This document shows, one piece after another, positions 2,881 through 19,112 of a stretch of 64,000 nucleotides of DNA. Positions within the stretch are counted from its first letter, which is position 1; each line of letters begins with the position of its first letter. This DNA comes from Bacteriovoracia bacterium (GTDB lineage: Bacteria > Bdellovibrionota > UBA1018 > JBFWNL01). A program made the position numbers and the translations under genes. Below the pieces are notes generated by a model that saw only the letters and a list, made by a program, of their open reading frames with translations, did no database searches and was not told where the DNA came from. The DNA lies in assembly GCA_050251055.1 (NCBI GenBank), contig JBFWNL010000005.1, positions 64,001 to 128,000 of the forward strand. The letters run 5' to 3'.

Positions 2881-4284
2881 ATGAGTCAGCAGAAGTTTCG
2901 CACCGAGAAAGACACTTTCGGCCCCATCGAGGTACCGGCCGACCGGCTCTGGGGCGCGCAGACCCAGCGGTCACTGAAGTACTTTTCTATTTCCACGGAA
3001 AAGATGCCACTTGCGCTCGTGTATGCGCTGGCCACGGTGAAGAAAGCGGCCGCGATCGTGAACCGTGAAAACGGTTCGCTCGACGCGAAGAAGTCGGAGG
3101 CGATCGTGAAGGCCGCCGACGAGGCGATCGCCGGAAAGCTCGATGCCGAGTTTCCCTTGTTCGTCTGGCAGACCGGGAGCGGCACCCAGTCGAACATGAA
3201 TCTCAACGAGGTCCTGGCCAATCGCGCGAGCGAGCTGATGGGCGGCGAGCGTGGGGAGGCCCGCAAGGTGCACCCCAACGACGACGTGAATAAAGGCCAA
3301 AGCTCCAACGACGTGTTTCCTACTTCCATGCACGTGGCTGCCGCGGCCGCCGTGGTAGGTTCGGTCATTCCGTCGGTGAAGGCTCTGCGCGATACGTTGC
3401 AGGGCAAGGCGAAAAGTTTTCGCGATATCGTGAAGATCGGTCGCACGCACCTGCAGGACGCGACGCCGCTGACGCTTGGCCAGGAGTTCTCGGGCTACGC
3501 CTCGCAGCTGGAACACGGGCTCGCGCACCTGGAGCGCTCGCTTCCGCATCTTTACGAGCTCGCGCTCGGCGGAACCGCGGTCGGCACGGGCCTGAACGCC
3601 CCGAAAGGTTACGCCGAGCGCGTGGCTAAGGAGATCGCTCATTTGACGGGATTGCCGTTCGTGACCGCTCCCAATAAGTTCGAGGCCCTGGCCGCGAACG
3701 ACGCCCTCGTGAGCGCGCACGGGTCGTTGAAGGTGGTGGCGACCGCCCTGTTTAAAATCGCCAACGACATCCGGTGGCTTTCGTCGGGTCCCCGCTCGGG
3801 GTTGGGTGAAATCACGATTCCGGAGAACGAGCCGGGTAGCTCGATCATGCCGGGAAAGGTGAATCCCACCCAGTGTGAGGCCATGACCATGCTCTGCGCC
3901 CAGATCATGGGTAACGACGTGGCGGTGACGATGGGGGGGGCCTCCGGGAATTTCGAACTCAACGTCTATAAACCACTCATGATTCAAAACTTCCTACAGT
4001 CCTGCCGATTGTTGGCGGATGGCTGCCGCAGCTTCCGGGAGCATTGCGCGGAAGGGATCGAAGCAAATCGCGCGCGGATCGATGAAAACCTCAAGCGTTC
4101 GTTAATGCTGGTGACCGCGCTCAATCCCCACATCGGGTACGACAATGCGGCTAAGATCGCTAAAAAGGCGCACAAAGACGGGACGACGCTGAAAGAGGCG
4201 GCGATGGCGTTGGGTTTGGTGACGGCCGAGCAATTTGATCAGTGGATCAAGCCCGAACAAATGGTCGGCGAGATCAAGCTCTAA
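2881..4284 (+). CDS. fumC: Class II fumarate hydratase
   Basis: [37 protein letters not shown]. Confidence 0.97.
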
Positions 4285-4298
4285 CGACTGGCTTCGGG

Positions 4299-7211
4299 TT
4301 ATTTTTCTTTTTCCGGTTCGGGCAAAGTAAACTGGCGGCCGGCGAGCGGGAACTTCACGTCTTTGGGCTGTAGGGCATCCGGCTTTTCGAGGCGCTTGAG
4401 TTCGGCCACATTGGCCGCGATCTTGTTGCCGATGAACGGCCGAATCTGCAGGAGCACGACTTTGTCCTCGACCATCGCCCACTCCATGTCCCACTTGCGG
4501 CTCTCGAGCTTGGGGTAGGCTTGCATCAGGTGCTTCTGGATCCCGTCGCCCTTGCCGGCGAGCGCCTTGGCGTGGGCTTCGGGAATAATCGGATCCAGGC
4601 CTTGCACCGGTACGTCGGCAAATCCTCCGTCCGGCAGCAGCACTTTGCGCGTAGGAGCATAGGCCCGGCGTACCCGGTTCACCGTGCCCGCGTGGCGGGA
4701 AACCAGGACTTCCTCGGGATTGTACTCTCCGTTGACGACCGTGATCCCCACGCCTTCGTTGGCGGCGATCATGACCTCGTCCTGGTATTCCTCATTCTGC
4801 GTACTGCCCACGACCATGACGCCGGCCTTAGTTCCGTTGATCCCGATCTGGACGACCACCGAGGGATACACGTCCCACGGGTTTTCGATCAGGTCTTGTC
4901 GCCAGGTCATCGCCTTGCGCGTGAACGGGGACGCCCAGACGTCCTTGATGGCTTGTACCACCTTGGCCAATCCCACGACGTTAGGGATGGTTTCATTGAG
5001 GCCTGCGCCCACGAACTGGGGCAAATCTTCGGCATTCGTATCGCTGCGGACGAATACGCCGCGGCCCAAGAATGGCTCCTTGCTGAGGGTCTGGGCGATG
5101 AAAGCGATCAATTCGGGTTTGAGCTCGATCGTGCGGATACGCTGACGGATCTTCTCTAGCGCGGCCACCTTCTTGGCCATCCCTTCGTCGCTGGTGTCGC
5201 TGAGGTCAAACTCTTCGAATATCTTACGGGCATCTTCGAGGATTCCCGTCTCCTTCATATGTGCGTAGTAGACGCCGAAGGGGAGGACAAAGGCTTGCGG
5301 GACATGATCCGGGAAGACGGAAGCCAGTTCGCCTTGGCCGCAGGCTTTGCCGCCCGCCACGATGCCACTGTCGGTCATGCGCAGTTGCTCCAGAAACAGC
5401 GGGCGATTGTATTTCATCATATCGGCTGGAATCTGGATGCGGGTACGTTTCTGTTCCCGTACCTTGTTATAGACTTTCCAGGTATCGATCTCCGCGGGCG
5501 TTGCTTGGTCGAAGCGTTTTATGCTGACCTCGCCGTTGGGCAGCGAGATATAGAGCACATCTTGGTTTTCGAGGCCGCGCAGCTTGTCTACCAGGGACTG
5601 GGGAATGACCGCGTTGGGGAGTCCGTGGTTGCTGGCCAGCAGCTGCACGTGCGAAATGGTACTGCCCGAATCGGTCGTCAGTACGCCAGCCACTTTGCTG
5701 AGAGAAGGGGGGGTCTTGGTCAGCACGTAAATGTAGTCGGGCCGCCAGTTATAGTTCTCGTCGTTAGCTTCCGCCTCCGCGGTGACCTTGAGGATGCCGC
5801 GCGCGATGCCTGGGTTTAGCATTCGATGGGGAGCGGAGATTTCTTCCGTCCCGATAGTGATTTTACGGCCCGAATAGGTTTGAACCAGCGTGTGGATCTG
5901 GGCGAGGAAGTTTGTGAGCTGTAACAGCACGGTGGATCGCAGCGAGTCGTCGATGAACTTGTCCGCTTGGGGCACGTACTCTTTGTATTTGGCGAGTACG
6001 GGGTTGAACATCGCGCGGAAATTACGTACGCCTTCCTGGACGCTACCCTCCACCTTTTCGATGAGCATGAGGACTTCGGCCGGATCCACGAGCTGCCCAC
6101 CCCCACCCAGACTCGTGTTTTTTAGGGTGTCTCGGCGGATCAGCCCGATGGACTCCGCGCTTTTCGTCAAGGCGTCAACCATCGCTTGAATGTCGGCAAG
6201 CGAGAGTACCGTGCGGGTGTCTTGTAGACGTCCGATGAGGGCGCCACCTAGGGAAAAAGTCGCGGTTTGTAGCTGATGCAGCAGATCGATTTGCTCGATC
6301 GCGCAATCGATATCGCGGTCGATGCGGCAATTCGTCGTAGCGGCCCGGGCGGCGTTCCCGGCTTTGACGGAGGCATCGGCGAGGGCCGTCAGGTTGTCGC
6401 GTATGGCGTCCAGCTTGCCCGTGAGCGCTTTCGCGCTGGGCTTATCCATGAGGAACTTGGCGTGAGTCTGATAGTTATCGAGCGCCGAGCGCGCCGCTCC
6501 CGTCACATTATAGTGGATATAGAACGTGGCTACGTCTCCGCCCCCGAAGAGCGATTCGAGTTGGTTTTGGATCGTAGCCGCCATCTGGGTCACGCTGTCG
6601 TTGAGGCCCTGCGCTTTGCGCTGGGCGATGAATTTCTTCACGCGCTCGATCGTGAGAAGAGATGGCTGCTGGTGGATTTCCAGGCGAATATCCATGAATC
6701 CAGGCGCCCCTTGAATAACCACCGCGTTGGCCCGCATAGTGTTGATCATGCGGTTATCGTGGTTATGATAGATCGATCCCCCCAATAGGTAGCCCGTCAA
6801 GAGCGCATCGTCGGCGAGGGGTTGCCCGTTCTTTGTGGAGATCGTTTGATTCAATGTTTGGGCGAGCGTGATAAAGTCGCTTTCTGCGTTCGAATAAGTG
6901 AATTTGATCGGAAGCCACGGCATGCCCCACTCTTCCTGCATGCGTAGGTATTCCTGCAGGATCATTTCGCGGGGCTCCGGGTGGGCAGCCATCTGGGTGA
7001 GCAGCGTGTAGGCGGGGAACCCTTTGGCCTGGAATTCGGCGTAACCGCGTTGCAGGTCGGAGCTCGGCTGTCCGCTTGTCTTGGCGGCCTCGTACGCCCG
7101 GATCATTCGTTTGTTCCACTCTTGCTCGGCGGGGCCGGCTGCAGCCACCCCGGAAACGAAAAAGGCGACGGCGGTGATGATTAGGCCTGGAATCGCTTTC
7201 GACTTTGACAT
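4299..7211 (-). CDS. Secreted PEP/pyruvate-binding (ATP-grasp) dikinase-like protein, paralog B
   Basis: Signal peptide (..FFVSGVAAA), phospho-His-like motif TISHVQLLASNHG, GGKACGQGEL, RSDTNAEDLPQFVGAGLNET, DMEWA..LLQIRP. Confidence 0.85.
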   Translation of the reverse strand: MSKSKAIPGLIITAVAFFVSGVAAAGPAEQEWNKRMIRAYEAAKTSGQPSSDLQRGYAEFQAKGFPAYTLLTQMAAHPEPREMILQEYLRMQEEWGMPWLPIKFTYSNAESDFITLAQTLNQTISTKNGQPLADDALLTGYLLGGSIYHNHDNRMINTMRANAVVIQGAPGFMDIRLEIHQQPSLLTIERVKKFIAQRKAQGLNDSVTQMAATIQNQLESLFGGGDVATFYIHYNVTGAARSALDNYQTHAKFLMDKPSAKALTGKLDAIRDNLTALADASVKAGNAARAATTNCRIDRDIDCAIEQIDLLHQLQTATFSLGGALIGRLQDTRTVLSLADIQAMVDALTKSAESIGLIRRDTLKNTSLGGGGQLVDPAEVLMLIEKVEGSVQEGVRNFRAMFNPVLAKYKEYVPQADKFIDDSLRSTVLLQLTNFLAQIHTLVQTYSGRKITIGTEEISAPHRMLNPGIARGILKVTAEAEANDENYNWRPDYIYVLTKTPPSLSKVAGVLTTDSGSTISHVQLLASNHGLPNAVIPQSLVDKLRGLENQDVLYISLPNGEVSIKRFDQATPAEIDTWKVYNKVREQKRTRIQIPADMMKYNRPLFLEQLRMTDSGIVAGGKACGQGELASVFPDHVPQAFVLPFGVYYAHMKETGILEDARKIFEEFDLSDTSDEGMAKKVAALEKIRQRIRTIELKPELIAFIAQTLSKEPFLGRGVFVRSDTNAEDLPQFVGAGLNETIPNVVGLAKVVQAIKDVWASPFTRKAMTWRQDLIENPWDVYPSVVVQIGINGTKAGVMVVGSTQNEEYQDEVMIAANEGVGITVVNGEYNPEEVLVSRHAGTVNRVRRAYAPTRKVLLPDGGFADVPVQGLDPIIPEAHAKALAGKGDGIQKHLMQAYPKLESRKWDMEWAMVEDKVVLLQIRPFIGNKIAANVAELKRLEKPDALQPKDVKFPLAGRQFTLPEPEKEK

Positions 7212-7212
7212 T

Positions 7213-7854
7213 CTATCCTCGTAGTCCGATCACGCAAAGGACCGCTATTTTCAAAAGAGTCGTCAGGAAGTCTTGGCCGACCCGGGCGGCGCTCAGTAAA
7301 ATAAATTCGTCTTTCCACTGAACAATTAGAGGGCGCACCACCTCGAACATAAAGAAGCGGACGGTTCCATTATAGACGAGGTCAAAAGCCAGCCGGGTAA
7401 AGGTAATCACGGCCGCTCCGCTCGAGATCATCGCGAGCAGGCCCTGGCTCATCAGCGAGTTCACTACCCCGAACGCCATGAAGTATTGGAAGCGGTGCCG
7501 GCGCTTCAAGATGAAGTAGATCGGCCCCCCCAGTACGGAAGCGAAGAGGGTCATGAAGATGTTGATCATGGACTGCCGGTGGATGCGATAGTGCCCGTCG
7601 GGAGAGGTAAGAATGAAGGTGTTGTTTTCTGGCTCGGACGTCATGGGCGCGGCGATAGAGCGGGAGATGAATTCGGACGCGGTGGTGATGGTCACGTTCA
7701 CGCCCGTGAGGAGCAAGATGCTGGAGCGATTCGTCCACCAGCTTTGCATCCAGTCGCCGGCGGGACCGGTGATCACGGCAGGCAGCATGCCTTGAAAGGC
7801 GAGCCAAGCCGCCACCCAGGCGTGCCGACGCGAATTTTTTCTCACACCACCCAT
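7213..7854 (-). CDS. Hypothetical multi-pass membrane protein
   Basis: 213-aa ORF with several hydrophobic segments, 1 nt upstream of the dikinase gene. Confidence 0.65.
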   Translation of the reverse strand: MGGVRKNSRRHAWVAAWLAFQGMLPAVITGPAGDWMQSWWTNRSSILLLTGVNVTITTASEFISRSIAAPMTSEPENNTFILTSPDGHYRIHRQSMINIFMTLFASVLGGPIYFILKRRHRFQYFMAFGVVNSLMSQGLLAMISSGAAVITFTRLAFDLVYNGTVRFFMFEVVRPLIVQWKDEFILLSAARVGQDFLTTLLKIAVLCVIGLRG

Positions 7855-7929
7855 TTCCGCTCCTCAGACCCTATGCTTCACTCTCGACCCCGCGAGTAAC
7901 ACGCAGCGTCAAAAACTCAAAACTTTTTT

Positions 7930-8802
7930 TTATTTTCCTTCCCGTCGTCGGCGGTCTTCCTCTTCTTGTTTTTCCACTTCCTGTTCGATCTTGCGCTTGA
8001 GCTCTTCGTCGTAGTTCGGCTCCATCGGCTTCAACCGGTCGCGCGAATCCGTGGGCTGCGTCGAGGCGCTGTTTTCCGGGATGTAGATAATGTCGACCGG
8101 CGGGATGGGGCGAAAACGGGGACCGCGATCGACGAACTCCTTCAGCTCACCGACGACGCTTTCCGAGTAGGTAATCTTTATGTCCCGGGCGAAATCCACT
8201 ACGCAACGGGACGTGCCGGTCTCGCTGCGGCCGTCATGGTTACAAATCCGATCTAGCCGTACGCCATCGACGTCGGTGCTCTCGTAAGATTGTCCGCACA
8301 TCGTGCCGGTTCCGTCGGCCTTGATCACCCACTCGGGGCGGTTGCCGGTCATGGCGACCGTGCCGATCTCGTCGATGCCGAGCTTGGCAAAGTCGTAGAT
8401 GTACGTGCTCCCGTCGGCCACGTTGACCTGGGCCTTGAGGCTTCCGTCCGGGTTCCGCAAGGTGTCGCCGCGCAGGGTGTACTGTTTGTTTTTGCCCAGC
8501 GCCGAAGCAGCGAGTTTCCATTCCGCTTCCGTCGGCAGGCGCTTGCCAACGGCGGTACAGTAAGCCTTGGCCTGTTCGAAGTTCATGCGCATGGCTTTTT
8601 CCGGTCGTCGCGCGCTCGCATTGGTTTGCGCGACGTTCGTACGTCCCGTTTCCCAGATGTCGATATAGAAAGGTTTCGGCGCCCGCACGAGCACCATGTC
8701 GACGAACTCCGCGGCCGAAGCCGACAGCGGCAAACACGCACTCAGGACAAAGGCCATGGCGAAGCGGCCGGTCAAGTGATTCGCGAGCTGGATTTGTTTC
8801 AT
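7930..8802 (-). CDS. Secreted FGE/sulfatase-modifying-factor-fold protein
   Basis: FYIDIWE, AKAYC..GKRLPTEAEW, MTGNRPEWV, RCVVD; signal peptide; GAGGAGA RBS before ATG 8802. Confidence 0.8.
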   Translation of the reverse strand: MKQIQLANHLTGRFAMAFVLSACLPLSASAAEFVDMVLVRAPKPFYIDIWETGRTNVAQTNASARRPEKAMRMNFEQAKAYCTAVGKRLPTEAEWKLAASALGKNKQYTLRGDTLRNPDGSLKAQVNVADGSTYIYDFAKLGIDEIGTVAMTGNRPEWVIKADGTGTMCGQSYESTDVDGVRLDRICNHDGRSETGTSRCVVDFARDIKITYSESVVGELKEFVDRGPRFRPIPPVDIIYIPENSASTQPTDSRDRLKPMEPNYDEELKRKIEQEVEKQEEEDRRRREGK

Positions 8803-8839
8803 AAGTACACTCTCCTCGAAAAAAAATTGCATCGTTCGC

Positions 8840-11785
8840 TCAGGGCTGGGCGGCCCGCTCCAAGTTAAACTCTCGGCTGTTCAGGGGAAATTTCACGACC
8901 TTGGCCTTTACGATTGGTTTTTCCAATACCCGCAGGCCGGCGACGTTGGCAGCAATTTTATTGCCGATGAATGGTCGGATCTGCAGGAGCGCGAGCTTAT
9001 CCTCCACCATCGCCCACTCCATATCCCACTTCAGGTTCTTGGCGTTCGGGTAGCTGCGGGTCAGGTGGCGCTGGATTTGGTCGCCGACGGAAGCAAGTTG
9101 CTTGGCGTGCTCGTCCGGGATGATGGGATCGAGCCCCTGGACGGGCTGTTCGGCGAACCCGCCTTCGGGCAACAGCACCTTGCGGGTTGGGGCATATGCC
9201 TTGCGGACACGGTTTACCGTGCCCGCTTTGCGGGAAACGATGACTTCCTCGGGATTGTACTCGCCGTTCACGACGGTGATGCCCACGCCTTCATTGGCGG
9301 CGATGATTACCTCGTCGTCGAAGTCCTCAGTGGTCGTGCTACCGACGACCATAACCCCGGCCTTGGTTCCGTTGATTCCGATCTGGATCACCACGGAGGG
9401 ATACACGTCCCACGGGTTCTCGATGAGGTCTTGACGCCACGTGAGCGCTTTTTTTGTGAACGGCGAAGCCCAGACTTGCAGGATCGCCTTGATGACATTC
9501 TCCAGACCCACGACGTTCGGAATGGTTTCATTGAGACCCGCGCCTACGAATTGCGGCAGGTCCTCCGCGTTCGTGTCGCTACGCACGAAGACACCGTGCC
9601 CGGAATAAGGCGCCTTCAGCAGGAAGTTGGCGAGGGTTTTGATGATCTCCGGTTTGAGTTGGACTTTGGTCTTGATGAGTTCGCGGATGCGGTCGAGAGC
9701 GGCGGACTTCTTCGCCATGGCATCATCACTCCGGTCGTTGGCATCGAAACTCTTGAACATTGCCTCGATCTGGGCTTGTACGCCGGATTCGCGCATGTGC
9801 TCGTAGTAGACACCGAAGGGAAGCACGATCCCGTAAGGAACGTGGTTCGGGAAAACATGGGCCAATTCCCCTTGTCCGCAGGCCTTGCCGCCGGCGACGA
9901 TTCCGCGATCGGCCATGCGCAGCTGCTCGATTCGAAGCGGCGCCCGATACTCGTAAAGACCGGCGGGAACGGGCAAGCGCATGCGCTTTTCTTCGCGAAC
10001 CTGGTTGTAGCTTTTCCACACCTTGATTTCATCGGCCGTCGCGTTTGCGAACGCTTTAATCTCCACCTGGCCGTTGGGCAGGGAGATCAGCAGCACGTCC
10101 TGACCTGCCATTGGCTCCAAGCGGGCGACCAATGAGGGAGTGATGACGACATTTGGGATGCCGTGATTGCTGGCCAGGAGTTGCACGTGCGAGATAGTGC
10201 TGCCGGAATCGGTGGTGAGCAGACCCGCTACTTTGCTTAAGGAAGCCGGAGTCTTCGTCAGTACGTAAATGCGATCGGGGTGCCAGTTGTAGTTTTCATC
10301 TTGGGTTTGCTCGGCGGTCGGGATTACCAAGGTTCCGCGGGCGATGCCGGGATTCAACATGCGGTAGGCCGCGCCGATTTCCACGCCGTTTAGGATAATG
10401 CGGCTGCCGCTGTGATTCTGGAGGACGGTGTGCATTTGCGCCAAAAGATTGGTCAAGGGGATCAGGATCGTCCCTCGCACCGTGTCGTCGATAAAGCGAT
10501 CCGCCTGCGGTACGTACTCTTTGTAGCGCGCGAGGATCGGATTGTACATTTGGCGAAGGTTCTTCACGCCGTCTTGGGTGGCGGCTTCGAGTTTTTCGAT
10601 CAGAGCCAAGGCTTCTTCCACGCCGACGAGGTCTCCGGACTTGGGTTTTTCCCCCCAAGTGAACACCCGAAGGGTTTCCGGCTTGAGGAAACCAATCGAA
10701 ATTGCGGCCTTGGTCAGCGACTCGGTGATTACCCGCAAATCACCTAGCGACAGGGTGCCCTGGCTCTCCTGTAAGCGGCCGAGGTAGGAATTGGCGAGGG
10801 AGAAGATCGCCGTTTGCAGTTGGCGCAGCAGGTCCATCTGCTCGATGGAGCAATCGACCACGTAATCGATCACGCAGCCCTGGGCCCGCACCGTGCGCGC
10901 CTGGCTCGAAGCCTTCATGGCCGCATCCGCTAGGGCAGTGAGCGCGGAATTGATCTCGTCCGCGCGGGAGTTCAAGTCGGAGGCCTTGACTTTGCCGGCA
11001 AGAAATCCTGCCTGTACTTTGTATGCGGCGAATGCGGCCTTGGTAGCTGCGTCGAGCTGGAAGCGCGCGACGTACCGATCCGCGCTGCCGCCGCCGAAGA
11101 GCGCCTCAAGCTGCTCCAGGATCTCTTGGGCCGCCTGGATCACTTCCGCTCGCGCACCCTTCGCCTTTTGTTCGCTGATAAAACGCTTGGTCTGCTCGAT
11201 GGTGAGCAGTGATGGCTGCTGGTGAATCTCGTAACGGGTGCTGAGGAATGCGGGCTCGACCTTCGCGAGCGCGTGCGCAAGTATACGCACGGTGTTCACC
11301 GGCCCGGAATCCGCGTTGTGGAAGATGGTTCCGGCGAACAAGTACGCCGTGAGCAGGCGGTCGTCCGGCAGCGGGCTGCCGTCATGGCTCGATATGCTCT
11401 GATTCATGACAGAGCCTGTCGTGATGGCGTCGTATTCAGAATGCTGGTACGCCCACCGGCCGGCGAGCCAAGGCAGACCCCAGTCTTCTTGTTTGCGCAG
11501 GTACTCCTGGACGATCATTTCTCGGGGTTCCTTATGCCCGGCCATCTCGATGAGCGTGTCGTACGCGGGAAAACCCTGGGCCCGAAACTCGTCGATACCT
11601 TTTTGGATCTCCGGCGGCGTTCCCCACTTCGGATCCGACGGGTTGCGTTTGAGGGGTTCACGCTTGTAAGCGGCGATGAGCTTTTTATTCCACTCGATTT
11701 CCTTCGGTCCCGCCCAAGACGCGGTCGGTCCGAAGGCCGTGGCCATCATCAAACTCGCGGCGATGAAGCGTTCCCGAAAAAGCAT
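8840..11785 (-). CDS. Secreted PEP/pyruvate-binding (ATP-grasp) dikinase-like protein, paralog A
   Basis: Signal peptide (..AFGPTASWA); same His and ATP-grasp motifs as 4299..7211; alignable along its whole length. Confidence 0.85.
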   Translation of the reverse strand: MLFRERFIAASLMMATAFGPTASWAGPKEIEWNKKLIAAYKREPLKRNPSDPKWGTPPEIQKGIDEFRAQGFPAYDTLIEMAGHKEPREMIVQEYLRKQEDWGLPWLAGRWAYQHSEYDAITTGSVMNQSISSHDGSPLPDDRLLTAYLFAGTIFHNADSGPVNTVRILAHALAKVEPAFLSTRYEIHQQPSLLTIEQTKRFISEQKAKGARAEVIQAAQEILEQLEALFGGGSADRYVARFQLDAATKAAFAAYKVQAGFLAGKVKASDLNSRADEINSALTALADAAMKASSQARTVRAQGCVIDYVVDCSIEQMDLLRQLQTAIFSLANSYLGRLQESQGTLSLGDLRVITESLTKAAISIGFLKPETLRVFTWGEKPKSGDLVGVEEALALIEKLEAATQDGVKNLRQMYNPILARYKEYVPQADRFIDDTVRGTILIPLTNLLAQMHTVLQNHSGSRIILNGVEIGAAYRMLNPGIARGTLVIPTAEQTQDENYNWHPDRIYVLTKTPASLSKVAGLLTTDSGSTISHVQLLASNHGIPNVVITPSLVARLEPMAGQDVLLISLPNGQVEIKAFANATADEIKVWKSYNQVREEKRMRLPVPAGLYEYRAPLRIEQLRMADRGIVAGGKACGQGELAHVFPNHVPYGIVLPFGVYYEHMRESGVQAQIEAMFKSFDANDRSDDAMAKKSAALDRIRELIKTKVQLKPEIIKTLANFLLKAPYSGHGVFVRSDTNAEDLPQFVGAGLNETIPNVVGLENVIKAILQVWASPFTKKALTWRQDLIENPWDVYPSVVIQIGINGTKAGVMVVGSTTTEDFDDEVIIAANEGVGITVVNGEYNPEEVIVSRKAGTVNRVRKAYAPTRKVLLPEGGFAEQPVQGLDPIIPDEHAKQLASVGDQIQRHLTRSYPNAKNLKWDMEWAMVEDKLALLQIRPFIGNKIAANVAGLRVLEKPIVKAKVVKFPLNSREFNLERAAQP

Positions 11786-11787
11786 GA

Positions 11788-13995
11788 TTACTTTACGTCC
11801 TCCGCTTCGTGGGCGCCGGCGGGTGCCTCACGCCGTTTCAACTTGAATTGCGTGGTCATTTGATCCACCAGGCTGCACCAGTTCTCGGAATAGAGGCTAC
11901 CCGGCGGGTAATCCTTCACGCTGAAAGCGGGCGAGGGGTCCCCGTAGATCGGCTCGTAGGAGGTTTCTCGCGTCGGCGAGTATCCCTTCGGACACTCTTC
12001 CTTCTCATCGGCGCGATCGAGGACGCCTTCGGTGCTCGTCACGCACACGGTTCGCTGAGTATCCGACTTCACGCGCAGATGCTTGAAAAGGACCCGCATG
12101 TTTGGGTACTGGGATTTTTCTTTTTTCAGTTCGGCTTCGCGGCGCTGGTAGGCGCCTTCGCATAGGGCTTCGTCCGTTGCCTTGGATCCCGGCGATGCCC
12201 AAGCTTTCACGATCACTTGCTGGTCTTGCCCGTATGTCGACGTGCTCGTAAGCCAGGTGCGCGTGTCGGCCACGCATTCCAGCTCTCGCCACAATTGTTC
12301 CTCGAAAAGCTCGGCGCACTTGCCGCCTTCGTTCAGGAAGTAGGCCTTGTTGTCCTTCATGTAGCGCTCGCACTTGTACTTGTGCGCGGGCTTTTGGCCG
12401 ATGATGCGGGTTACGTTCGTTTGGTGCACTCCCAGGTACGGGACATCCAAGAGCTTCGCAGCCGTGCCTTCCTTCTCGGGCGTTTCGCCCACGAAGCCTA
12501 AGATGCAGGCGCCCGTAGGATCGAGGCTATTGCGCACGCGCGCGGCTTTTTCCTCGCCACCGTAGCCGTTGCCCATCACCTCGAGCGGGATAAAGTTTTT
12601 CTCGCACGCCAGGTTCTGGCGCTGGAGATCGGCGTACGCGCTCGTGCCGGTCGTCGAGACGAGGAAAATAGTCACGTCGTTGGCGATCACGAAGTCTTCA
12701 AAGCACTGCTTGTTTTCCGGCGTCCGCCAAGCATCTAGCGTGCCATGCATGTCCGCCAGCAGCACCGGATGCTGGCATTTGTAATCGTACGAGGTCCCGC
12801 CGATGAAGACGGGGGGTTGCCCGACGCGCTCGTCCTTTATTAGTTCGCCATTTTTCAAAAACCCGATCCGCGCGCGCTCCAAAGGATGTGTTTTGTCAAG
12901 GCTCTGAAATTGAGCGAGGGTGAGTTTTTTCTTGCTGACGTAACCCGTCCCGACGGCCCCGAGGTCCAGGTGGGTGCCGTCTTCGAAGACTAGGGCTAAG
13001 GAGACTTCGCTGGCCCGTGCGCCCGCGGGGAGCGAGAATTCTAGCTCCAGCTGGCGGGGAGAAATGATCTGGCCAGCTGGACCGACCGGAGAACTCACGC
13101 CCGAGGTGCCGCTGCTGGAATAGCCAGAACCCGTGACGACCCGAGGGGCGGACGAGCCACCGCCGTAGGTGCCGCTGCCCGAACCGGAAGGAATTACGAT
13201 CGCGGTGGAGCTGCGGTCCGTGGAACTCGAGGAGTTCGAGTAATAGTAAGTTCGATGGCTACGTTCGTAGGTCGTGGTCGTCTGCTTGCCGCCTTTGGCG
13301 AGGACCAGGGCGCGCACGGGGCCCTGTACATCGCTCGTGAGTTGGATCCGGATATCTTCGGCGTAATCGACGACACAGCGGACGGTAGCGCCACTATCCC
13401 AAGTGCTTTTACAGATCTTGTCCAGGGTCACATCGGCGAGCGCGAACTGGTAATGTCCCCCGCACTGCGCGGGTTTTCCGTCGGGTCCTAAGACCCACTC
13501 GTTGCGGTTTCCGGTCATCCCGACCGCGCCGATCGCGTCGACTCCGGCGTGATTATAGTCCGTTACGTCAACGCTTGAGCCACCACCGGTGTGTCCGACG
13601 TTCGCCTGCGGCTGACCTGGCTTGAACTCGAGTTTGTCGCCTTCCAGGGTATAGGACTTGTTTTGCCCGAGGTTGGACCCCGCCGTCAGCCACTCCGCCT
13701 GGGTAGGGATGCGCTTGCCCTGAGCCGCGCAGTATTGCACGGCAGTTTCATATTCCAGCCGCGGGGGATTGATCCCAGAACGTCCGGTCGGTACGTTGGC
13801 TTCTGGAAGCACGTACGCTAGCTCGCTGATGCTGGCCTCGAAGATATCCATATAGAAGGAGGCTTCGGGAGCGTTCACGAAAGTCATGTCTTGGAAGGAT
13901 TTGGGGGGTGACTGGGGAGTCACTTGACCGACCAAAGTTACGGGTAACAAGGTCCCAAAAAATTTAGCGATGACACTATGCATCCGCTCCCTCAA
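11788..13995 (-). CDS. Multidomain protein: FGE-fold domain, Ser/Gly linker, degenerate HAD-like domain, Cys-rich C-terminus
   Basis: FYMDIFE, YCAAQGKRIPTQAEW, MTGNRNEWV; LLADMHGTLD and GFVGETPEKE resemble HAD motifs I and IV. Confidence 0.7.
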   Translation of the reverse strand: MRERMHSVIAKFFGTLLPVTLVGQVTPQSPPKSFQDMTFVNAPEASFYMDIFEASISELAYVLPEANVPTGRSGINPPRLEYETAVQYCAAQGKRIPTQAEWLTAGSNLGQNKSYTLEGDKLEFKPGQPQANVGHTGGGSSVDVTDYNHAGVDAIGAVGMTGNRNEWVLGPDGKPAQCGGHYQFALADVTLDKICKSTWDSGATVRCVVDYAEDIRIQLTSDVQGPVRALVLAKGGKQTTTTYERSHRTYYYSNSSSSTDRSSTAIVIPSGSGSGTYGGGSSAPRVVTGSGYSSSGTSGVSSPVGPAGQIISPRQLELEFSLPAGARASEVSLALVFEDGTHLDLGAVGTGYVSKKKLTLAQFQSLDKTHPLERARIGFLKNGELIKDERVGQPPVFIGGTSYDYKCQHPVLLADMHGTLDAWRTPENKQCFEDFVIANDVTIFLVSTTGTSAYADLQRQNLACEKNFIPLEVMGNGYGGEEKAARVRNSLDPTGACILGFVGETPEKEGTAAKLLDVPYLGVHQTNVTRIIGQKPAHKYKCERYMKDNKAYFLNEGGKCAELFEEQLWRELECVADTRTWLTSTSTYGQDQQVIVKAWASPGSKATDEALCEGAYQRREAELKKEKSQYPNMRVLFKHLRVKSDTQRTVCVTSTEGVLDRADEKEECPKGYSPTRETSYEPIYGDPSPAFSVKDYPPGSLYSENWCSLVDQMTTQFKLKRREAPAGAHEAEDVK

Positions 13996-14219
13996 TCGTA
14001 TTTAAATTTGATTAAACTCTCTCTAACTCGCTGCGTTGTACCCATGGATAACGCATGCAGTCAAGATGGAAACTCCTTTTCATTTGAGTGGTCTGGTTGA
14101 TTTTTTTGACACACTGCGTGAACTATGATTTAAGGGCGCCGGACTCAATTTTACTCAGTTATTTGGCAGCTTTTGCCACCAGTTTGCCGCTGGCTTGAGA
14201 GACGGATTGGAGAGAAAAG

Positions 14220-17078
14220 GTGACCTCAAATATCGCACGTCTATTGGTGTTTGGTTTGGCCTTACAGGGACTCGGTTGCGCGTTCAAGTCGGCTCCGGAG
14301 AGCGCCACGCCGGCGGTTTCGCCTCCTGCCGTGAGCGAAAATTCAACGTTGTTTGATACTTTTTATGCCCAGGCCCTGCGGGACGCCCAGGCGAAACGCC
14401 CGATCCTTGAAAATCCGTATTCCCTGATTCCGCAGGCGGCTCCGTCATACTTCGATGCTCAATTCGCCGAGATTGCCAACGACACGCCTGGCGATCCGTT
14501 GGAACAAAAGGCGCTGATGGATAAGGCGATGGCGTTGGGCGCCCGCTTTGGGGAAATCGACGGTACGAGCGAAGGGGTGCGCATCGGCGTTCTGCACGCC
14601 CAGAAAAAGGCGGAGATCGCGGCGGCCAAAGGAATCTATGATCGCTTCTTCGCCGATCAAGACGGTCGCGCGCTTTTCGAGAAGATCAGTTCCACGGTCG
14701 CTACTTCTCCAAATCTCAAGACGCTCGTCACTAGCACCACGGGCGAACAGAAAGACTCCGCTGCCTATAAAGTGGGGTACTTGTTCGGCAAGCAGCATGG
14801 GGACGCCACTGGTCGCAACATGCAGGGCAAAGAAAAAGGGGCGGCTGACGCGCAGTCGGGCAAGGACGACGCCGTTCGTCGTCAAGCACGCAGCGTAGGT
14901 GAGCCGGCCGGCAAGGCCCGCGCCCTCAAGTCGTATCAAGACGACCGTGATTTCAAAAACGTGAGGCAGACGGCCGATGGGCGTAGGCCTCAGGCGAGCC
15001 CGCCGGTCCTTCCGCCGGATGCCGAGGTGACCAAGCCGGATTGGACGACCGTGAAGGGTTTCAACCCCAATCCCCGCCGTCCTTTCGGTAGCATCGAACT
15101 TGATAAGGCGTACTTCGACGCCTACGCAGCGGCTTTTCAAAGTTCTGCGGAGAAGTCCTACGTTAAGGCGTTGGCGGACGCGGTGCCAGCCTTAACCAAG
15201 AGCGTGGAGTTCTGGACCGCGAAGCACTACCAAAACGCCGGCTTGGCCGATCTCATCGGCAAAGATACCCTTGTTTTTGCGGGCTATTTGGACGCATACC
15301 TCGTGGCGAAAGATGCGGCATACCTCGAGGAAGTCAAAAAAGGATTCGAAAGCGCGATGGATGCGGCGATGACGGAGTCGCTGAATCGCATGACCGAGGA
15401 AGAAGAAAAGCGGGCCCACGATGCGGAGCTTCGGCGCCTCATGCGCGAGCCAGATGTCCGCTTCGAGAATATCGTGATGGAAGACGTCGATAGCGACGGT
15501 TTGCACGCTCCGGGAGGCAGCTTCGGAGTAGCGGTTCAACTGGCCAACTACGGCGAAGCCTTCGCGGCGGGCGATTACCAGCTCTCGATGAAGGATGTTG
15601 ATGGCGCTGAATTCACTTCCGATGGGCAGCTGGTGCGCGCGCTGCCGGCCGGGGAAAAACGAAGCCGAAACACCATCACGGGTATCTTTAAATTCAAGAT
15701 TTCTCCGAACGCGACGGTGTCCAAGCGTCATGCCTTTAGTTTCGAGTTGAAGGATAGAAAAGGGGTAGTGATCGCGAGCCGCAACGGTGAGCTCGCGGTG
15801 ACGTTCCCGTTCGAAATCGCGGAAACCGCGTTGCCCAAGAACCTGGTGGCGGGCAATGCCACCACCTTGGACTTTCGCGTGACGCGAACGGCGCGGACCG
15901 AAGCGAAGGGATTGCAGGTTACCTTGACCGAAACTACGGGGGATACCGTGATCGCGGTTCCGAGCGCGACCTTCGATTCCGCGGGCGGCGCGGTAACTTC
16001 CTTGCGGTTTGACGTGAAGGCCGGTCTTACCCGGCATTCCGACGAGCGGCAGTTTAAGTTGGAAATCCGCCAGGGCGCGCAGCTGGTGGGTCTAAAGGAA
16101 GTGAAGCTCGCCACCGTGCTTGATTACTTCCCCGATCCCAATGCGCGCATTTTAGTGCTCGCTTCATCGGCCGACGAGATCAAGCGGTATTACGGACTGG
16201 CTCAGCAAATGGGAATCTCCCTGTCGGTTTGGAATCTGACGCAAAACTCGACCTTGAGCGCCGAAGCTTGGCGCGCGTTCGTGGATCGCGGTATTTTCTA
16301 CCCTTCGCCACCGGATGTGACGGCTAAGGACATTTCTCGGCCTCAGCGCGACGCCGCCGTGAGCGTGTTCCAGCAGCTGGTGCGTGGATACCTGGGCGCC
16401 GGGGGTTGGCTCGTGTATGGCGATCAGGCGGGCTCTCCGCTGAAGACCTGGCTGGATCACGCGACGGGGCCTGAATTGAAGGAAACGAACGAAAAGGCCA
16501 AGGCCGCTCGCGGCCGTGCCTTTGCGCCTTCGGTGTTCGCGCCGTTTCCGTACGGCAACTTGCCCGAGATTTTCGAGGGCAACTATTTCGACGTCAACCG
16601 TCCGGAACTCGCCCAGTATCACATCGGCCGGGTTAAAGGGATGAGCGGTCTCACCGACGCGCAGCTGCAGAATATCATCAAGGACTTCCTAGTTGTTTCA
16701 GCTCCGATCGAGAAAAAAGTGCAACAGCTGGCCGCCGCCGCGAAGGCGCGTGACCAGGCGGGCGTCGATCGCTGGAAGACGGTTATCTTGCGTGAACTAA
16801 CGAAAGAGATGAACGACGACAAGCAAATGAACGGGCAGTGGAGCGTGTTCAACACCGAAAAACAGGAAGTTCAGTTTGACACTTCCAAGTTGCTGCTGGT
16901 TCGCTTCATGAACGCCTTTTCGCAAGTGAAAGACGTGGCGGAGCTTCGCGCCGTTTGCGATCTCTACAAGCCGCTGTACGACGCCGCGGGTAAGCTCGGC
17001 GGCACGGCCAGCCGCAAGCAGAAGGTACGCGCGCTGATCAAGCCTTTGGAAGACGCCCAAAAGAAGTTGTCCAAGTAA
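14220..17078 (+). CDS. Large hypothetical lipoprotein
   Basis: 952-aa ORF, lipobox-like LQGLGC; helical N-terminal half, beta-rich middle, alpha/beta C-terminal part. Confidence 0.75.
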   Translation: MTSNIARLLVFGLALQGLGCAFKSAPESATPAVSPPAVSENSTLFDTFYAQALRDAQAKRPILENPYSLIPQAAPSYFDAQFAEIANDTPGDPLEQKALMDKAMALGARFGEIDGTSEGVRIGVLHAQKKAEIAAAKGIYDRFFADQDGRALFEKISSTVATSPNLKTLVTSTTGEQKDSAAYKVGYLFGKQHGDATGRNMQGKEKGAADAQSGKDDAVRRQARSVGEPAGKARALKSYQDDRDFKNVRQTADGRRPQASPPVLPPDAEVTKPDWTTVKGFNPNPRRPFGSIELDKAYFDAYAAAFQSSAEKSYVKALADAVPALTKSVEFWTAKHYQNAGLADLIGKDTLVFAGYLDAYLVAKDAAYLEEVKKGFESAMDAAMTESLNRMTEEEEKRAHDAELRRLMREPDVRFENIVMEDVDSDGLHAPGGSFGVAVQLANYGEAFAAGDYQLSMKDVDGAEFTSDGQLVRALPAGEKRSRNTITGIFKFKISPNATVSKRHAFSFELKDRKGVVIASRNGELAVTFPFEIAETALPKNLVAGNATTLDFRVTRTARTEAKGLQVTLTETTGDTVIAVPSATFDSAGGAVTSLRFDVKAGLTRHSDERQFKLEIRQGAQLVGLKEVKLATVLDYFPDPNARILVLASSADEIKRYYGLAQQMGISLSVWNLTQNSTLSAEAWRAFVDRGIFYPSPPDVTAKDISRPQRDAAVSVFQQLVRGYLGAGGWLVYGDQAGSPLKTWLDHATGPELKETNEKAKAARGRAFAPSVFAPFPYGNLPEIFEGNYFDVNRPELAQYHIGRVKGMSGLTDAQLQNIIKDFLVVSAPIEKKVQQLAAAAKARDQAGVDRWKTVILRELTKEMNDDKQMNGQWSVFNTEKQEVQFDTSKLLLVRFMNAFSQVKDVAELRAVCDLYKPLYDAAGKLGGTASRKQKVRALIKPLEDAQKKLSK

Positions 17079-17180
17079 CGGTGCTGTCTAGGGCTTAGAC
17101 AGCTGCCACAACCCTGTCCGACCCGGGCACTCGTGCGCGTGGCGAGCGAGGTCTGGCGCGAGTTTGGCGACGCCTTATCC

Positions 17181-17196
17181 TGGCATTCGCTTTGCT
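17181..17196 (+). promoter_or_regulatory. Sigma54-type -24/-12 promoter
   Basis: TGGCATTCGCTTTGCT (GG-N10-GC), 52 nt upstream of ATG 17249. Confidence 0.6.
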
Positions 17197-17248
17197 TAGT
17201 TCGACCCCGGTTGAACAACTGGAAATGGAAATGGAAGGCAAGAGTTGT

Positions 17249-18085
17249 ATGAAGCGTAATTGGGATGCATGGGCAATATTGGCGGGCATGGCCGTCATTG
17301 CGGGGTTGTTGATTCATTCGCTGTCGACGACTTCCAACCGCACCGCGGCTTTGCCGCAGAAAGAGTTTTCCGGAAGTTCCGCCGCGGGCGCGGAAGGCAA
17401 CGCCGTGGATTCTGCGCCTAACTCTTTTCAAGTTTCCTTTCGAGACCAGTGTCGCACGAAGGAGTGCGAAGCCATCATGGCGCGCGAGTTTGAAAAGTTC
17501 CAGGCCGCCAAGCAGGTCGATTCGCCTCGGCAGCTGGGCCCGGTTACGGGTAGCGGCCGCCCGGTTTCCTTCCCGGTGGTCCCGGCGATTCGTGAGTCCC
17601 AGCCCGGAGCGGTGGCGATTGCGCCATCCGCCCCTCATCACCAGATTCCCTTGGTCTTGCCGGCAGGCACGGACGAAGTCGCCAAGACCGAAGCGCGGGG
17701 AATCCTATCCATGGCTAAGGACCTCTACGTCTGGACTAAGAAAAAGATGGCCGGCACCCTTAAGGAAAGTTTGAAGGACGACGTCGACGAGATGGAAAAG
17801 TACGTCAAGAAGGGCGATAAATCCGGCGTAAAAGTCGAAATCAAGGGCGATGACCTTGAGGCCTTCATCGCTCGGCAAAGAGGCGCTGGCGGCGAAGCCA
17901 TCGATTCTGGCGACGACGCTACGGGCCTGCCCACGGCACGTTTACCTCTAGTGAAGCCCACCCGGGCCCCGGTCCGCCCAGTGGCTGAAAATGCCTATCA
18001 TAACGATGACATGGATCTCGATATGGCGGAAGACTTCTTCAAGGTTTCGGACCAACCCAAGGAAGCGCAAGAAGGCGGGAGCTGA
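17249..18085 (+). CDS. Hypothetical membrane-anchored protein
   Basis: N-terminal TM segment (WAILAGMAVIAGLLI); start placed downstream of the sigma54 site. Confidence 0.65.
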   Translation: MKRNWDAWAILAGMAVIAGLLIHSLSTTSNRTAALPQKEFSGSSAAGAEGNAVDSAPNSFQVSFRDQCRTKECEAIMAREFEKFQAAKQVDSPRQLGPVTGSGRPVSFPVVPAIRESQPGAVAIAPSAPHHQIPLVLPAGTDEVAKTEARGILSMAKDLYVWTKKKMAGTLKESLKDDVDEMEKYVKKGDKSGVKVEIKGDDLEAFIARQRGAGGEAIDSGDDATGLPTARLPLVKPTRAPVRPVAENAYHNDDMDLDMAEDFFKVSDQPKEAQEGGS

Positions 18086-18113: not shown

Positions 18114-19112
18114 CTAGGGGAACTCGAGTCCCCACCAGGTGGCGATGTTCGGGCAGAGGCCCGCGACGCTGCCGCAGAAGTTGCCGCCGCTGTGCCCGTT
18201 GCCGCCATTCGCTTTGATATACAGATTGTTGTTCGTGGAAGTCCCCCCCGCCGCCTTCGAAGGGATGGCCAGGTACGAGTACGCGCTCGCGTAGTTCTGC
18301 ATCGTACTGTGACAGCTTAAGCACCCCGCCAGTCGTCCGCGCACGTTGTTCGTAAAGTAGGTCTGACCGGCCGCCGTGGGCGTGTAGAGCGTGAAATTAA
18401 ACGGCGACGTGTTGATGGGAAAAAGCTGTCCCGAGGCCGTGTCGGCCGCATAGGCATATAGGGGGTGCTGGACGCCGTCGCGATAGGGCGCCGGGATTGT
18501 GAACTGGAACTCGTGGTTTCCCGGGATCGGGACGCCGAAGATACGGGGGAGGTTGGCGATCGCTTCTCCGGCCAGCGTGCCCACGCCGATAGGCCCGTTG
18601 ATATAGAATTTCACCGTCACGGCCTGGCTCGGGGTATCGGCGTCTGCGGCCCAGCCACTGAGCACGTTCCCCGAGATCGTCGGATCGAGCGCGCCGCTAG
18701 GCGCACCACCCGCCGAAGCGGGAGAGAATTCTAGATCCCACCATTGTTGAAAGAGCGAGCAAGGCGGGGAGTCCGCCGTGGGCGTGCACTGATTCCCGCC
18801 GCCGTGGGTGATCACGTTCCGGGTCTTCTCCACGAGCTCGTTTTGCGTGCGGGATGCTCCGTTGGCGAGCATGGCCCGCATCGGATCGTAATCGTAGATA
18901 TCGTCGGTGGCGATGCCGTTGGGGCTGTGGCAGGCGATGCAGCGGGTGCGGAGCGACGGAGCGACGGAATTCGCGAAAAAATCCGGGCCGGCCTGCGCCT
19001 GACGAAGACTATCTTGATTGTTGGCTTTCATGCAGCCGTTGGCGCCGACGAGCAAAGAGCTCACGGCGAAGAAGGTTCCCCATGACCGGATCTGCGTAAA
19101 CGTCGCCTTCAA
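18114..19112 (-). CDS. Di-heme c-type cytochrome lipoprotein with a central Ig-like domain
   Basis: CIACH and CLSCH motifs in two repeated domains; lipobox GANGC. Confidence 0.75.
   Translation of the reverse strand: MKATFTQIRSWGTFFAVSSLLVGANGCMKANNQDSLRQAQAGPDFFANSVAPSLRTRCIACHSPNGIATDDIYDYDPMRAMLANGASRTQNELVEKTRNVITHGGGNQCTPTADSPPCSLFQQWWDLEFSPASAGGAPSGALDPTISGNVLSGWAADADTPSQAVTVKFYINGPIGVGTLAGEAIANLPRIFGVPIPGNHEFQFTIPAPYRDGVQHPLYAYAADTASGQLFPINTSPFNFTLYTPTAAGQTYFTNNVRGRLAGCLSCHSTMQNYASAYSYLAIPSKAAGGTSTNNNLYIKANGGNGHSGGNFCGSVAGLCPNIATWWGLEFP

Follow-up and report, generated by a model that had tools for sequence, protein, structure and literature searches.

The window analysed here, a stretch of 64,000 nucleotides (nt) from contig JBFWNL010000005.1 of a Bacteriovoracia bacterium (Bdellovibrionota), encodes two paralogous proteins, P0001 and P0002. 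We propose that they are Sec-exported, competent dikinases that phosphorylate an extracytoplasmic acceptor together with partners encoded in the same operon, a reading to which we assign a probability of roughly 0.55. The domain architecture, the catalytic residues, the export signals and the partner genes are all conserved. A polymer of the envelope or of prey is our best guess for the acceptor, and ATP would be supplied by a membrane carrier or by prey contents.

The two dikinases (970 and 981 amino acids (aa), 59% identical over 976 columns) lie where a sequence-only reading of this DNA had placed them, and its account of their domains holds up well. It had proposed a C-terminal ATP-grasp domain in both: PPDK_N (PF01326) matches P0001 at residues 619-930 (5.6e-37) and P0002 at 631-939 (1e-39), and the predicted fold matches that of rifampin phosphotransferase (Rph). 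An AlphaFold2 (AF2) model of P0002, built with 75 relatives (pLDDT 89.8, pTM 0.89), contains a signal helix (residues 2-18), an all-helical region of about 435 aa (27-459) that corresponds to the long helical N-region described earlier, a beta-rich domain (463-596) and an alpha/beta ATP-grasp domain (~612-950). In VIA-align the latter superimposes on Rph (5hv1; Z 34.6, root-mean-square deviation 2.2 A, 311 residues, 25% identity), on HpeI (Z 26.5, the third-best structural match) and on maize PPDK (Z 15.6); Foldseek agrees (Rph, E 1.7e-16). Residues 464-596 match the His domain of Enzyme I (Z 10.3) and the phosphoryl-carrier domain of PPDK (Z 8.5), a swivel-type fold around the predicted phospho-His motif (STISHVQLLASNHG), which is found in both proteins and whose histidine (His521 in P0001, His533 in P0002) is invariant in 75/75 relatives. 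The PEP-utilizers family (PF00391) matches P0002 weakly (515-553, 18 bits) and is above cut-off in 12/50 relatives; no further Pfam family matches P0001 or P0002 even at E<=1. The PEP/pyruvate barrel is absent, as had been claimed: PF02896 gives no match at E<=1 and the proteins stop about 40 residues past the ATP-grasp domain. Also invariant in the 75-row alignment are Gly632, Lys634, Arg735-Ser-Asp-Thr, Glu741-Asp742, Gly748-Ala-Gly-Leu, Asp921, Glu923, Gln935 and Arg937; most of these residues stay invariant in a 128-row alignment, where His533 is at least 90% conserved. The pattern reproduces the GGK / VRS / DxE...LQxR signature of the canonical PPDK of the same genome (contig C4), and the invariant ATP-grasp residues presumably correspond to the nucleotide- and Mg-binding residues of PPDK. 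From sequence and model we infer that both proteins are catalytically competent dikinase-type phosphotransferases.

The helical N domain may hold the acceptor site. Its His188 is invariant, and conservation reaches at least 90% at Arg167, Phe180, Arg184 and Pro191; the corresponding R...F...R.EIH..P element recurs in variants from the same phylum, in dikinases of 1286-1463 aa and in ~540-aa leucine-rich repeat (LRR) proteins. Foldseek and VIA searches with the full-length model, in which the N domain was not searched alone, returned generic helical-bundle and repeat matches for it, and a known fold is possible; judged by sequence and model, the putative acceptor domain of this family appears to be new. 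The longer variants (L088, L089 and L090, in genomes G081, G057 and G232) bear signal peptides, the N-domain element and a C-terminal PPDK_N. A split form also exists (L091 in G215:C28, L106 in G307:C27), in which a 493-523-aa protein combines a signal peptide, a His domain and PPDK_N, and these loci contain up to six tandem ~540-aa paralogs that join LRR repeats to the element.

Export via Sec is predicted from the N-termini. Both dikinases begin with a basic n-region, after which 12-17 hydrophobic residues free of charge lead up to AAA/G (P0001) or SWA/G (P0002) at residues 23-25, an n/h/c pattern that by inspection fits the Sec-type signal peptides proposed earlier. The third paralog of the genome, P0011 (contig C1, 996 aa), and P0007 share this n-region/hydrophobic/small-x-small N-terminus. 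Among 128 full-length family members, 118 pass a lenient home-made signal rule, which is too permissive (506/1133 six-frame open reading frames (ORFs) pass in the control), and 81 pass a strict one, for which the background is 654/2567 ORFs of the same genome (25%). Five of the ten proteins missed by the lenient rule (P0055, P0068, P0107, P0134 and P0137) start right at the N-terminal motif conserved in the family; their gene calls are apparently truncated. Signal-like N-termini recur among relatives that are only 25-40% identical; the predicted export signal is conserved across diverged relatives. Of two possible P0002 starts, the longer is separated by 2 nt from the stop codon of the gene upstream; with it both paralogs have full signal peptides. 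Clear signal peptides are also found in the partners: in P0004, in the C1 paralog of P0005 and in the HAD-like proteins of loci L008 and L009. The dikinases have few cysteines, among them a close pair (Cys304/Cys312).

The partners are encoded in the same string of five close-packed minus-strand genes (4299-13995, gaps of 2, 7, 75 and 1 nt; Table 1). P0004 and P0005 score 46.7 and 35.2 bits with PF03781 (FGE-sulfatase, cut-off 23.3); the match covers only positions 93-194 of the 255 in the profile, and the unmatched C-terminal part is presumably the one that holds the catalytic Cys pair of formylglycine-generating enzymes. The FGE-fold protein, whose fold is C-type-lectin-like, probably recognises or holds the acceptor; a complex prediction for the P0002 N domain (27-470) with P0004 (41-262) scored 0.00, which is uninformative either way. 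The C-terminal part of P0005 is homologous to separate ~500-aa genes that precede the dikinase in L008 and L009; a 708-aa paralog on C1 is homologous too. HAD motifs I-IV are present in all four sequences (D-x-[HD]-[GN]-T, S-x-x-G-x-S, E-K-A-x-R and G-[DE]-T-P-x-x-[DE]), in P0005 with D415 (I), S447 (II), K483 (III) and G-E-T-P-x-x-E (IV). Nearly all of the 50 PDB matches listed by VIA for this part are HAD hydrolases or phosphatases, aligned from the motif I strand (Z 10.5-13.5), and in a PDB profile search three of the four matches are HAD proteins (best E 0.013). We assign the C-terminal part of P0005 as a putative HAD-like phosphatase domain. The C1 paralog (C1:568869-570995, L096:8470-10596), a second fusion of FGE-fold and HAD-like parts, has a clear signal peptide and lies 8.4 kb downstream of P0011; P0011 itself (C1:557499-560489) lies among housekeeping and fatty-acid-synthesis genes.

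The dikinase family is large and uncharacterised. Among 1.84 billion representatives, a profile search returned 8151 matches at E<=1e-3, 2948 at E<=1e-10 and 331 clusters at E<=1e-30. Most of the 150 best have lengths of 940-1050 aa, and they align end to end. NCBI labels members 'PEP/pyruvate-binding domain-containing protein', and our literature search turned up no account of a comparable exported dikinase. The loci found on genome contigs come mainly from Bryobacteraceae, Solibacteraceae and Gammaproteobacteria, including Teredinibacter and Chromatiaceae, and Acidobacteriota and Gammaproteobacteria commonly have the exported architecture. The three nearest relatives are metagenome-assembled genomes (MAGs) of Bdellovibrionales (38-39% identity), and the window paralogs fall in a 13-row clade with 100% Shimodaira-Hasegawa-like support (FastTree, 139 rows, one outgroup row). 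In its own genome the enzyme is triplicated (P0001, P0002, P0011). Elsewhere in the phylum it is scarce: the P0002 N domain as a single query found its own genome only among 201 phylum genomes, and a five-row N-domain profile found 10 of 401, with a whole-domain match in only two besides the own genome. A word-based homolog search returned three proteins for P0002 and, for the C-terminal part of P0005, that part itself alone; a scan of metagenome contigs with the N-domain alignment of the clade gave 180 pattern matches, none of which was confirmed. The genome also encodes a 703-aa protein (C1:113806-115917, L005:253-2364) that has no signal peptide and carries PPDK_N at 416-701, preceded by a His motif (TPLSH); it looks like a cytoplasmic protein whose modules stand in the order seen in the dikinases.

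Neighbourhoods were surveyed in 42 of 68 loci, picked for long flanks, and in the window. An exported Beta-lactamase2-like (bla-like) gene is present in 36 of the 42 and follows the dikinase directly in 20, as judged with a crude ORF caller; a TLC/NTT-type carrier gene (PF03219 above cut-off) is present in 8 of the 42, namely L008, with two copies, and seven others. In six gammaproteobacterial loci TLC shares a strand with a small bla-like gene, and the dikinase and a bla-like gene occupy the opposite one. Neither the window nor the clade loci L008-L010 have a bla-like gene. Here an FGE-sulfatase-fold gene stands directly downstream of the dikinase (twice in the window, and in L008, L009, L010 and L092), an arrangement seen in 0/39 main-family loci, and a HAD-like gene is found in the window, in L008, in L009 and on C1 of the own genome, 8.4 kb from the third paralog. 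The 952-aa protein encoded divergently to the operon is homologous to a 925-aa protein of L008 (24% identity over 968 columns), whose gene has the HAD-like gene on one side and the dikinase on the other. Two TLC-like genes belong to L008 as well, as do a trypsin-like gene and an S8 peptidase, and a ClpB-type AAA fragment lies at the edge of the locus. In the Bdellovibrio MAG locus L009 (2260-5357) the string of HAD-like gene, 941-aa gene, dikinase and FGE-fold gene stands, by eye, straight after genes with PBP2- and RodA-like N-termini. Two genes after a main-family dikinase of another Bdellovibrionota genome, L095:12245-12826 encodes a secreted protein of 193 aa that matches a DSP/PTP phosphatase family below threshold (23.5 bits, cut-off 27).

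How could an exported dikinase obtain ATP? TLC carriers are widespread in the phylum: PF03219 is found in 80 of the 401 Bdellovibrionota genomes sampled, in 50 of 100 genomes of one family and in none of 14 control genomes. The excerpted text of one study describes NTT/TLC genes in free-living bacteria and draws no link to such enzymes (PMC5381601). The membrane protein P0003 is a second candidate. It matches no Pfam family and shows about four segments of weak hydrophobicity, and its family occurs in 12/401 phylum genomes; since the family adjoins a signal-peptide-bearing ATP-binding protein in 12/12 copies examined (one weak match, in G163, stands outside these), it may be a conduit, anchor or activator for exported ATP-using enzymes. 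In the window this neighbour is dikinase 1; elsewhere it is a pair of AAA proteins (C3 of the own genome), the split dikinase clusters L091 and L106, and, in L098, L099, L101, L102, L104 and L105, proteins of 737-785 aa that combine a signal peptide with CUB, AAA_2 and ClpB_D2-small domains (6/6 scanned); L100 and L103, which were unscanned, look like further CUB-AAA_2 loci. A feature-similarity search placed P0003 near MFS-like fragments (0.92-0.94, a lead only). The idea that P0003 is related to the TLC carrier, or is a piece of it, was rejected (hhalign probability of 0.15%). The two C3 proteins (L097:2877-4238 and 4251-5732; 453 and 493 aa) are adjacent, have signal-peptide-like N-termini with no other hydrophobic segment, and contain intact AAA (PF00004) domains with Walker A; by sequence they look like exported AAA+ ATPases of the same genome.

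We hypothesize the following mechanism. The C-terminal ATP-grasp domain would bind ATP and hand the beta-phosphate to the swivel histidine (His521 in P0001, His533 in P0002), while the gamma-phosphate would go to water or to phosphate. The swivel domain would then carry the phosphate to the helical N domain, where the acceptor site would be made up of the invariant His188 together with Arg167 and Arg184, both near-invariant, and from which it would be passed to the extracytoplasmic acceptor. The FGE-fold protein would recognise or hold that acceptor and the HAD-like domain would remove the phosphate, making phosphorylation a reversible cycle; in the Bdellovibrionota clade the small membrane protein and the secreted ~950-aa protein would join the dikinase as partners. 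A bolder version of this idea, which we offer tentatively, is a self-contained extracytoplasmic cycle: the exported dikinases would write phosphate on an envelope or prey polymer, the HAD-like phosphatase would erase it, the lectin-fold adaptor would select the target, and dedicated membrane proteins (a TLC-type carrier in certain lineages and, in this phylum, the P0003 family) would deliver ATP to, or activate, exported ATP-dependent enzymes that include Clp/torsin-like AAA+ proteins.

Several observations weigh against the proposal of exported, polymer-phosphorylating dikinases. On the phosphatase side, the second Asp of motif I (D+2) is a His in P0005, in its C1 paralog and in L009, and is Asp only in L008; no Pfam family matches the HAD-like part of P0005, and its AF2 model has low confidence overall (pLDDT 50.5, core 54-81). 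On the acceptor side, the four-helix-bundle matches of the N domain (Z ~9.5) are under the helical noise level, and it has no informative structural relative. As for export, the public gene call for P0002 (P0006, 969 aa) starts at Met13, which would cut the signal peptide short, and the signal peptide of P0005 itself is weak while that of its C1 paralog is clear. As for ATP, TLC is missing from the window (the sole copy of the genome is on contig C7), and because only 3/10 N-domain genomes (G000, G057 and G081) carry PF03219, against 80/401 overall, co-occurrence of TLC and enzyme is not seen in the phylum.

The last point also favours a different view, in which the enzymes are predation effectors. 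The sequence-only reading had suggested action in prey or host contents; our data do not require prey, the architecture being common outside this lineage and often having TLC next door, but a prey reading is live for this predatory-type lineage. Enzymes secreted past the predator's own envelope into prey, where ATP is at hand, would phosphorylate a prey polymer or, with the HAD-like phosphatase, run a futile cycle that turns the ATP of the prey into AMP and phosphate. This would suit a Bdellovibrionota genome whose dikinases are nearest to those of Bdellovibrionales, the other signal-peptide-bearing ATP-binding enzymes of the genome and phylum (the two C3 AAA proteins and the CUB-AAA_2 proteins), the secreted proteases that adjoin the cluster in L008, L010 and L093, and the pairing of kinase and phosphatase in one operon, as expected of an ATP-hydrolysing cycle. 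We nevertheless find it rather unlikely, given that the architecture is widespread, with carrier and hydrolase partners, in Bryobacteraceae, Solibacteraceae, Chromatiaceae and Teredinibacter, which we take to be non-predators, and that the enzyme is rare in the phylum itself (N domain in 10/401 genomes). At the other extreme, the hydrophobic N-terminus could be a non-working signal or a start-codon artefact and the enzymes could use cytoplasmic ATP. The Met13 start in the public call points that way, as does the signal-less 703-aa protein of the same genome with its C-terminal PPDK_N after TPLSH (seen by eye; no Pfam PEP-utilizers match). Set against these are the recurrence of signal-like N-termini in relatives at 25-40% identity, the coupling of the longer P0002 start to the upstream stop, and conserved partners that are themselves predicted to be exported, and we consider a cytoplasmic enzyme very improbable.

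The nature of the acceptor could also differ from the polymer that we favour. A small-molecule dikinase would detoxify or capture an antibiotic, a phenolic or a metabolite outside the cytoplasm: the ATP-grasp domain is nearest to those of Rph and HpeI, well over PPDK, the split forms in L091 and L106 recall a two-component organisation, and HpeHI is a two-component small-molecule dikinase (PMC12167813). We hold this to be improbable: the N domain is unlike the rifampin-binding domain, lectin-fold, LRR and large secreted partners suit macromolecular targets better, and catabolic or resistance genes were not found adjacent in the window. Alternatively, the enzymes could be functional analogues of the plant starch dikinases GWD and PWD and act on an alpha-glucan or another storage or capsular glycan, in a cycle of phosphorylation and dephosphorylation like the one that GWD/PWD and SEX4/LSF2 run on starch. 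Their domain order matches, clusters carrying GWD1_pHisD are among the nearest in the feature search (0.75-0.76, a lead only), a DSP-phosphatase-like gene, albeit sub-threshold, lies near the main-family member in L095, and kinase and phosphatase are paired as in starch turnover (PMC12892837). To this analogy, too, we give little credence, because CBM45, CBM20 and other carbohydrate-binding Pfam families are found in 0/50 members at E<=1, GWD1_pHisD stays sub-threshold in the 10/50 members that it matches (best 18.7 against 27 bits) and matches neither window protein, and glycogen or glucan genes were not found adjacent in the window.

Table 1. Features of the dikinase locus (positions in the window unless a locus is named; domain functions and signal peptides are predictions).
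Feature	Position (nt)	Strand	Size or residues	Remarks
Dikinase 1, P0001	4299-7211	minus	970 aa	
P0001 signal peptide	7137-7211	minus	1-25	
P0001 helical N domain	5862-7136	minus	~26-450	
P0001 His domain	5460-5861	minus	~451-584	His521 at 5649-5651
P0001 PPDK_N ATP-grasp	4422-5357	minus	619-930	
P0003	7213-7854	minus	213 aa	stop 1 nt from dikinase 1 start
P0003-family copies elsewhere	L097:5733-6371; L091:7595-8209; L098-L106			
P0004	7930-8832	minus	300 aa	exported, possibly lipoprotein, by sequence; FGE-sulfatase-fold; start 7 nt past dikinase 2 stop
Dikinase 2, P0002	8840-11785	minus	981 aa	
P0002 signal peptide	11711-11785	minus	1-25	
P0002 helical N domain	10400-11710	minus	26-462	His188 at 11222-11224
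P0002 His domain	9998-10399	minus	463-596	His533 at 10187-10189
P0002 ATP-grasp	8936-9952	minus	612-950	Lys634, Arg735, Asp921, Glu923, Gln935, Arg937
P0005	11788-13995	minus	735 aa	stop 2 nt from dikinase 2 start
P0005 FGE-sulfatase-fold part	13291-13908	minus	~30-235	followed by Ser/Gly-rich linker and Cys-rich C-terminal part
P0005 HAD-like core	12421-12780	minus	~406-525	motif I D415-M-H417-G-T
Intergenic region	13996-14219			AT-rich, divergent; separates five-gene operon from 952-aa gene
952-aa gene	14220-17078	plus	952 aa	signal-peptide-like N-terminus; no Pfam family; divergent to operon
Cytochrome c-like gene (probable)	18114-19112	minus	332 aa	weak CXXCH/haem-binding matches

A consensus promoter above chance was not found in the intergenic region between the operon and the 952-aa gene, and a promoter and terminator scan of 3900-17500 gave no more sites than shuffled sequence. 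Two DNA sequencing runs from one study (X1, X2) contain this DNA and may be where it came from; RNA runs containing it are not listed. Further along the window, the 332-aa protein is probably, by its sequence, a multihaem cytochrome c-like protein; an internally repeated paralog is encoded on contig C2.

To our knowledge, ATP-dependent enzymes of bacteria are held to be confined to the cytoplasm. A family that is large and conserved, keeps every catalytic residue of a dikinase and carries export signals challenges that view, and the extracytoplasmic cycle, if true, would overturn the rule that there is no ATP-driven enzymology in the periplasm. To this the window adds a lineage in which the enzyme is triplicated, its association with a lectin-fold protein and a phosphatase-like domain, a combination that recalls how the polymer starch is reversibly phosphorylated, and the P0003 family as a candidate server of exported ATP enzymes.

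While the window proteins resemble known dikinases, there are key differences in each case. The sequence-only reading had set them beside GWD and PWD. These do carry a C-terminal PPDK_N (PMC11986951), and both groups combine a phospho-His domain and a C-terminal PPDK_N with no pyruvate barrel, to which come a substrate-binding N part and a phosphatase partner (both putative for the window proteins). The likeness stands for domain order and goes no further: a starch- or glycan-binding module was not found (CBM45, CBM20 or any carbohydrate-binding Pfam family in none of the 50 members scanned, that is P0001, P0002 and 48 relatives), and GWD1_pHisD (PF22973) reaches 12-18.7 bits, all below the cut-off of 27, in relatives only. 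The window proteins differ in being bacterial and signal-peptide-bearing, in their unrelated all-helical N domain and in a His domain that scores as generic PEP-utilizers; by sequence they are not members of GWD/PWD, and the likeness is architectural only. Structure comparison leads elsewhere, since the P0002 model is nearest to the Rph ATP-grasp and no GWD or PWD is among the PDB matches; a 2026 review states that no GWD/PWD structure has been solved (PMC12892837).

The order of a His domain followed by a C-terminal ATP-grasp domain is, as that reading had noted, the reverse of that in PEP synthase, PPDK and Rph. PEP synthase and PPDK share with the window dikinases the PPDK_N ATP-grasp, the PEP-utilizers swivel domain and the catalytic motifs, but they have a TIM barrel that the window dikinases lack. 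Nor do the latter group with cytoplasmic PEP synthases: the NCBIfam models for PEP synthase, Rph and PigC match the ATP-grasp alone, far under their cut-offs (124-131 bits against 598-740 for PEP synthase). Rph (5hv1, 5fbs) has the closest ATP-grasp and likewise combines a swivel-His mechanism with a non-barrel acceptor domain, yet its ATP-grasp comes first, at residues 1-318, and its His domain last; with the Rph model NF041857 (90-96 bits, cut-off 999) only the ATP-grasp aligns and there is no likeness to the rifampin-binding domain. Rph is moreover cytoplasmic, unlike the signal-peptide-bearing window dikinases. Enzymes of the HpeHI/phenylphosphate synthase type, close in their ATP-grasp (HpeI, Z 26.5), are cytoplasmic and catabolic, have no signal peptides and differ from the window family in their acceptor domain. 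In HpeHI the acceptor-binding and swivel parts are separate from the ATP-grasp (PMC12167813), a separation that resembles the split forms in L091 and L106.

The nearest comparison is with the main branch of the family itself, which agrees with the window proteins in length, signal peptide, the order of the three domains and the invariant residues, His188 among them. The main branch is only 23-28% identical to the window clade and has an N-terminal RGPF..IRWFC.DG Cys motif that is missing from the clade. Its beta-lactamase-fold partner (36/42 loci) is replaced in the window clade by the FGE-fold partner, to which the HAD-like domain, the 950-aa protein and P0003 are added, and of the clade loci L008 alone has TLC in its cluster. 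The novelty of the window lies in a small, well-supported Bdellovibrionota clade with a partner set of its own.

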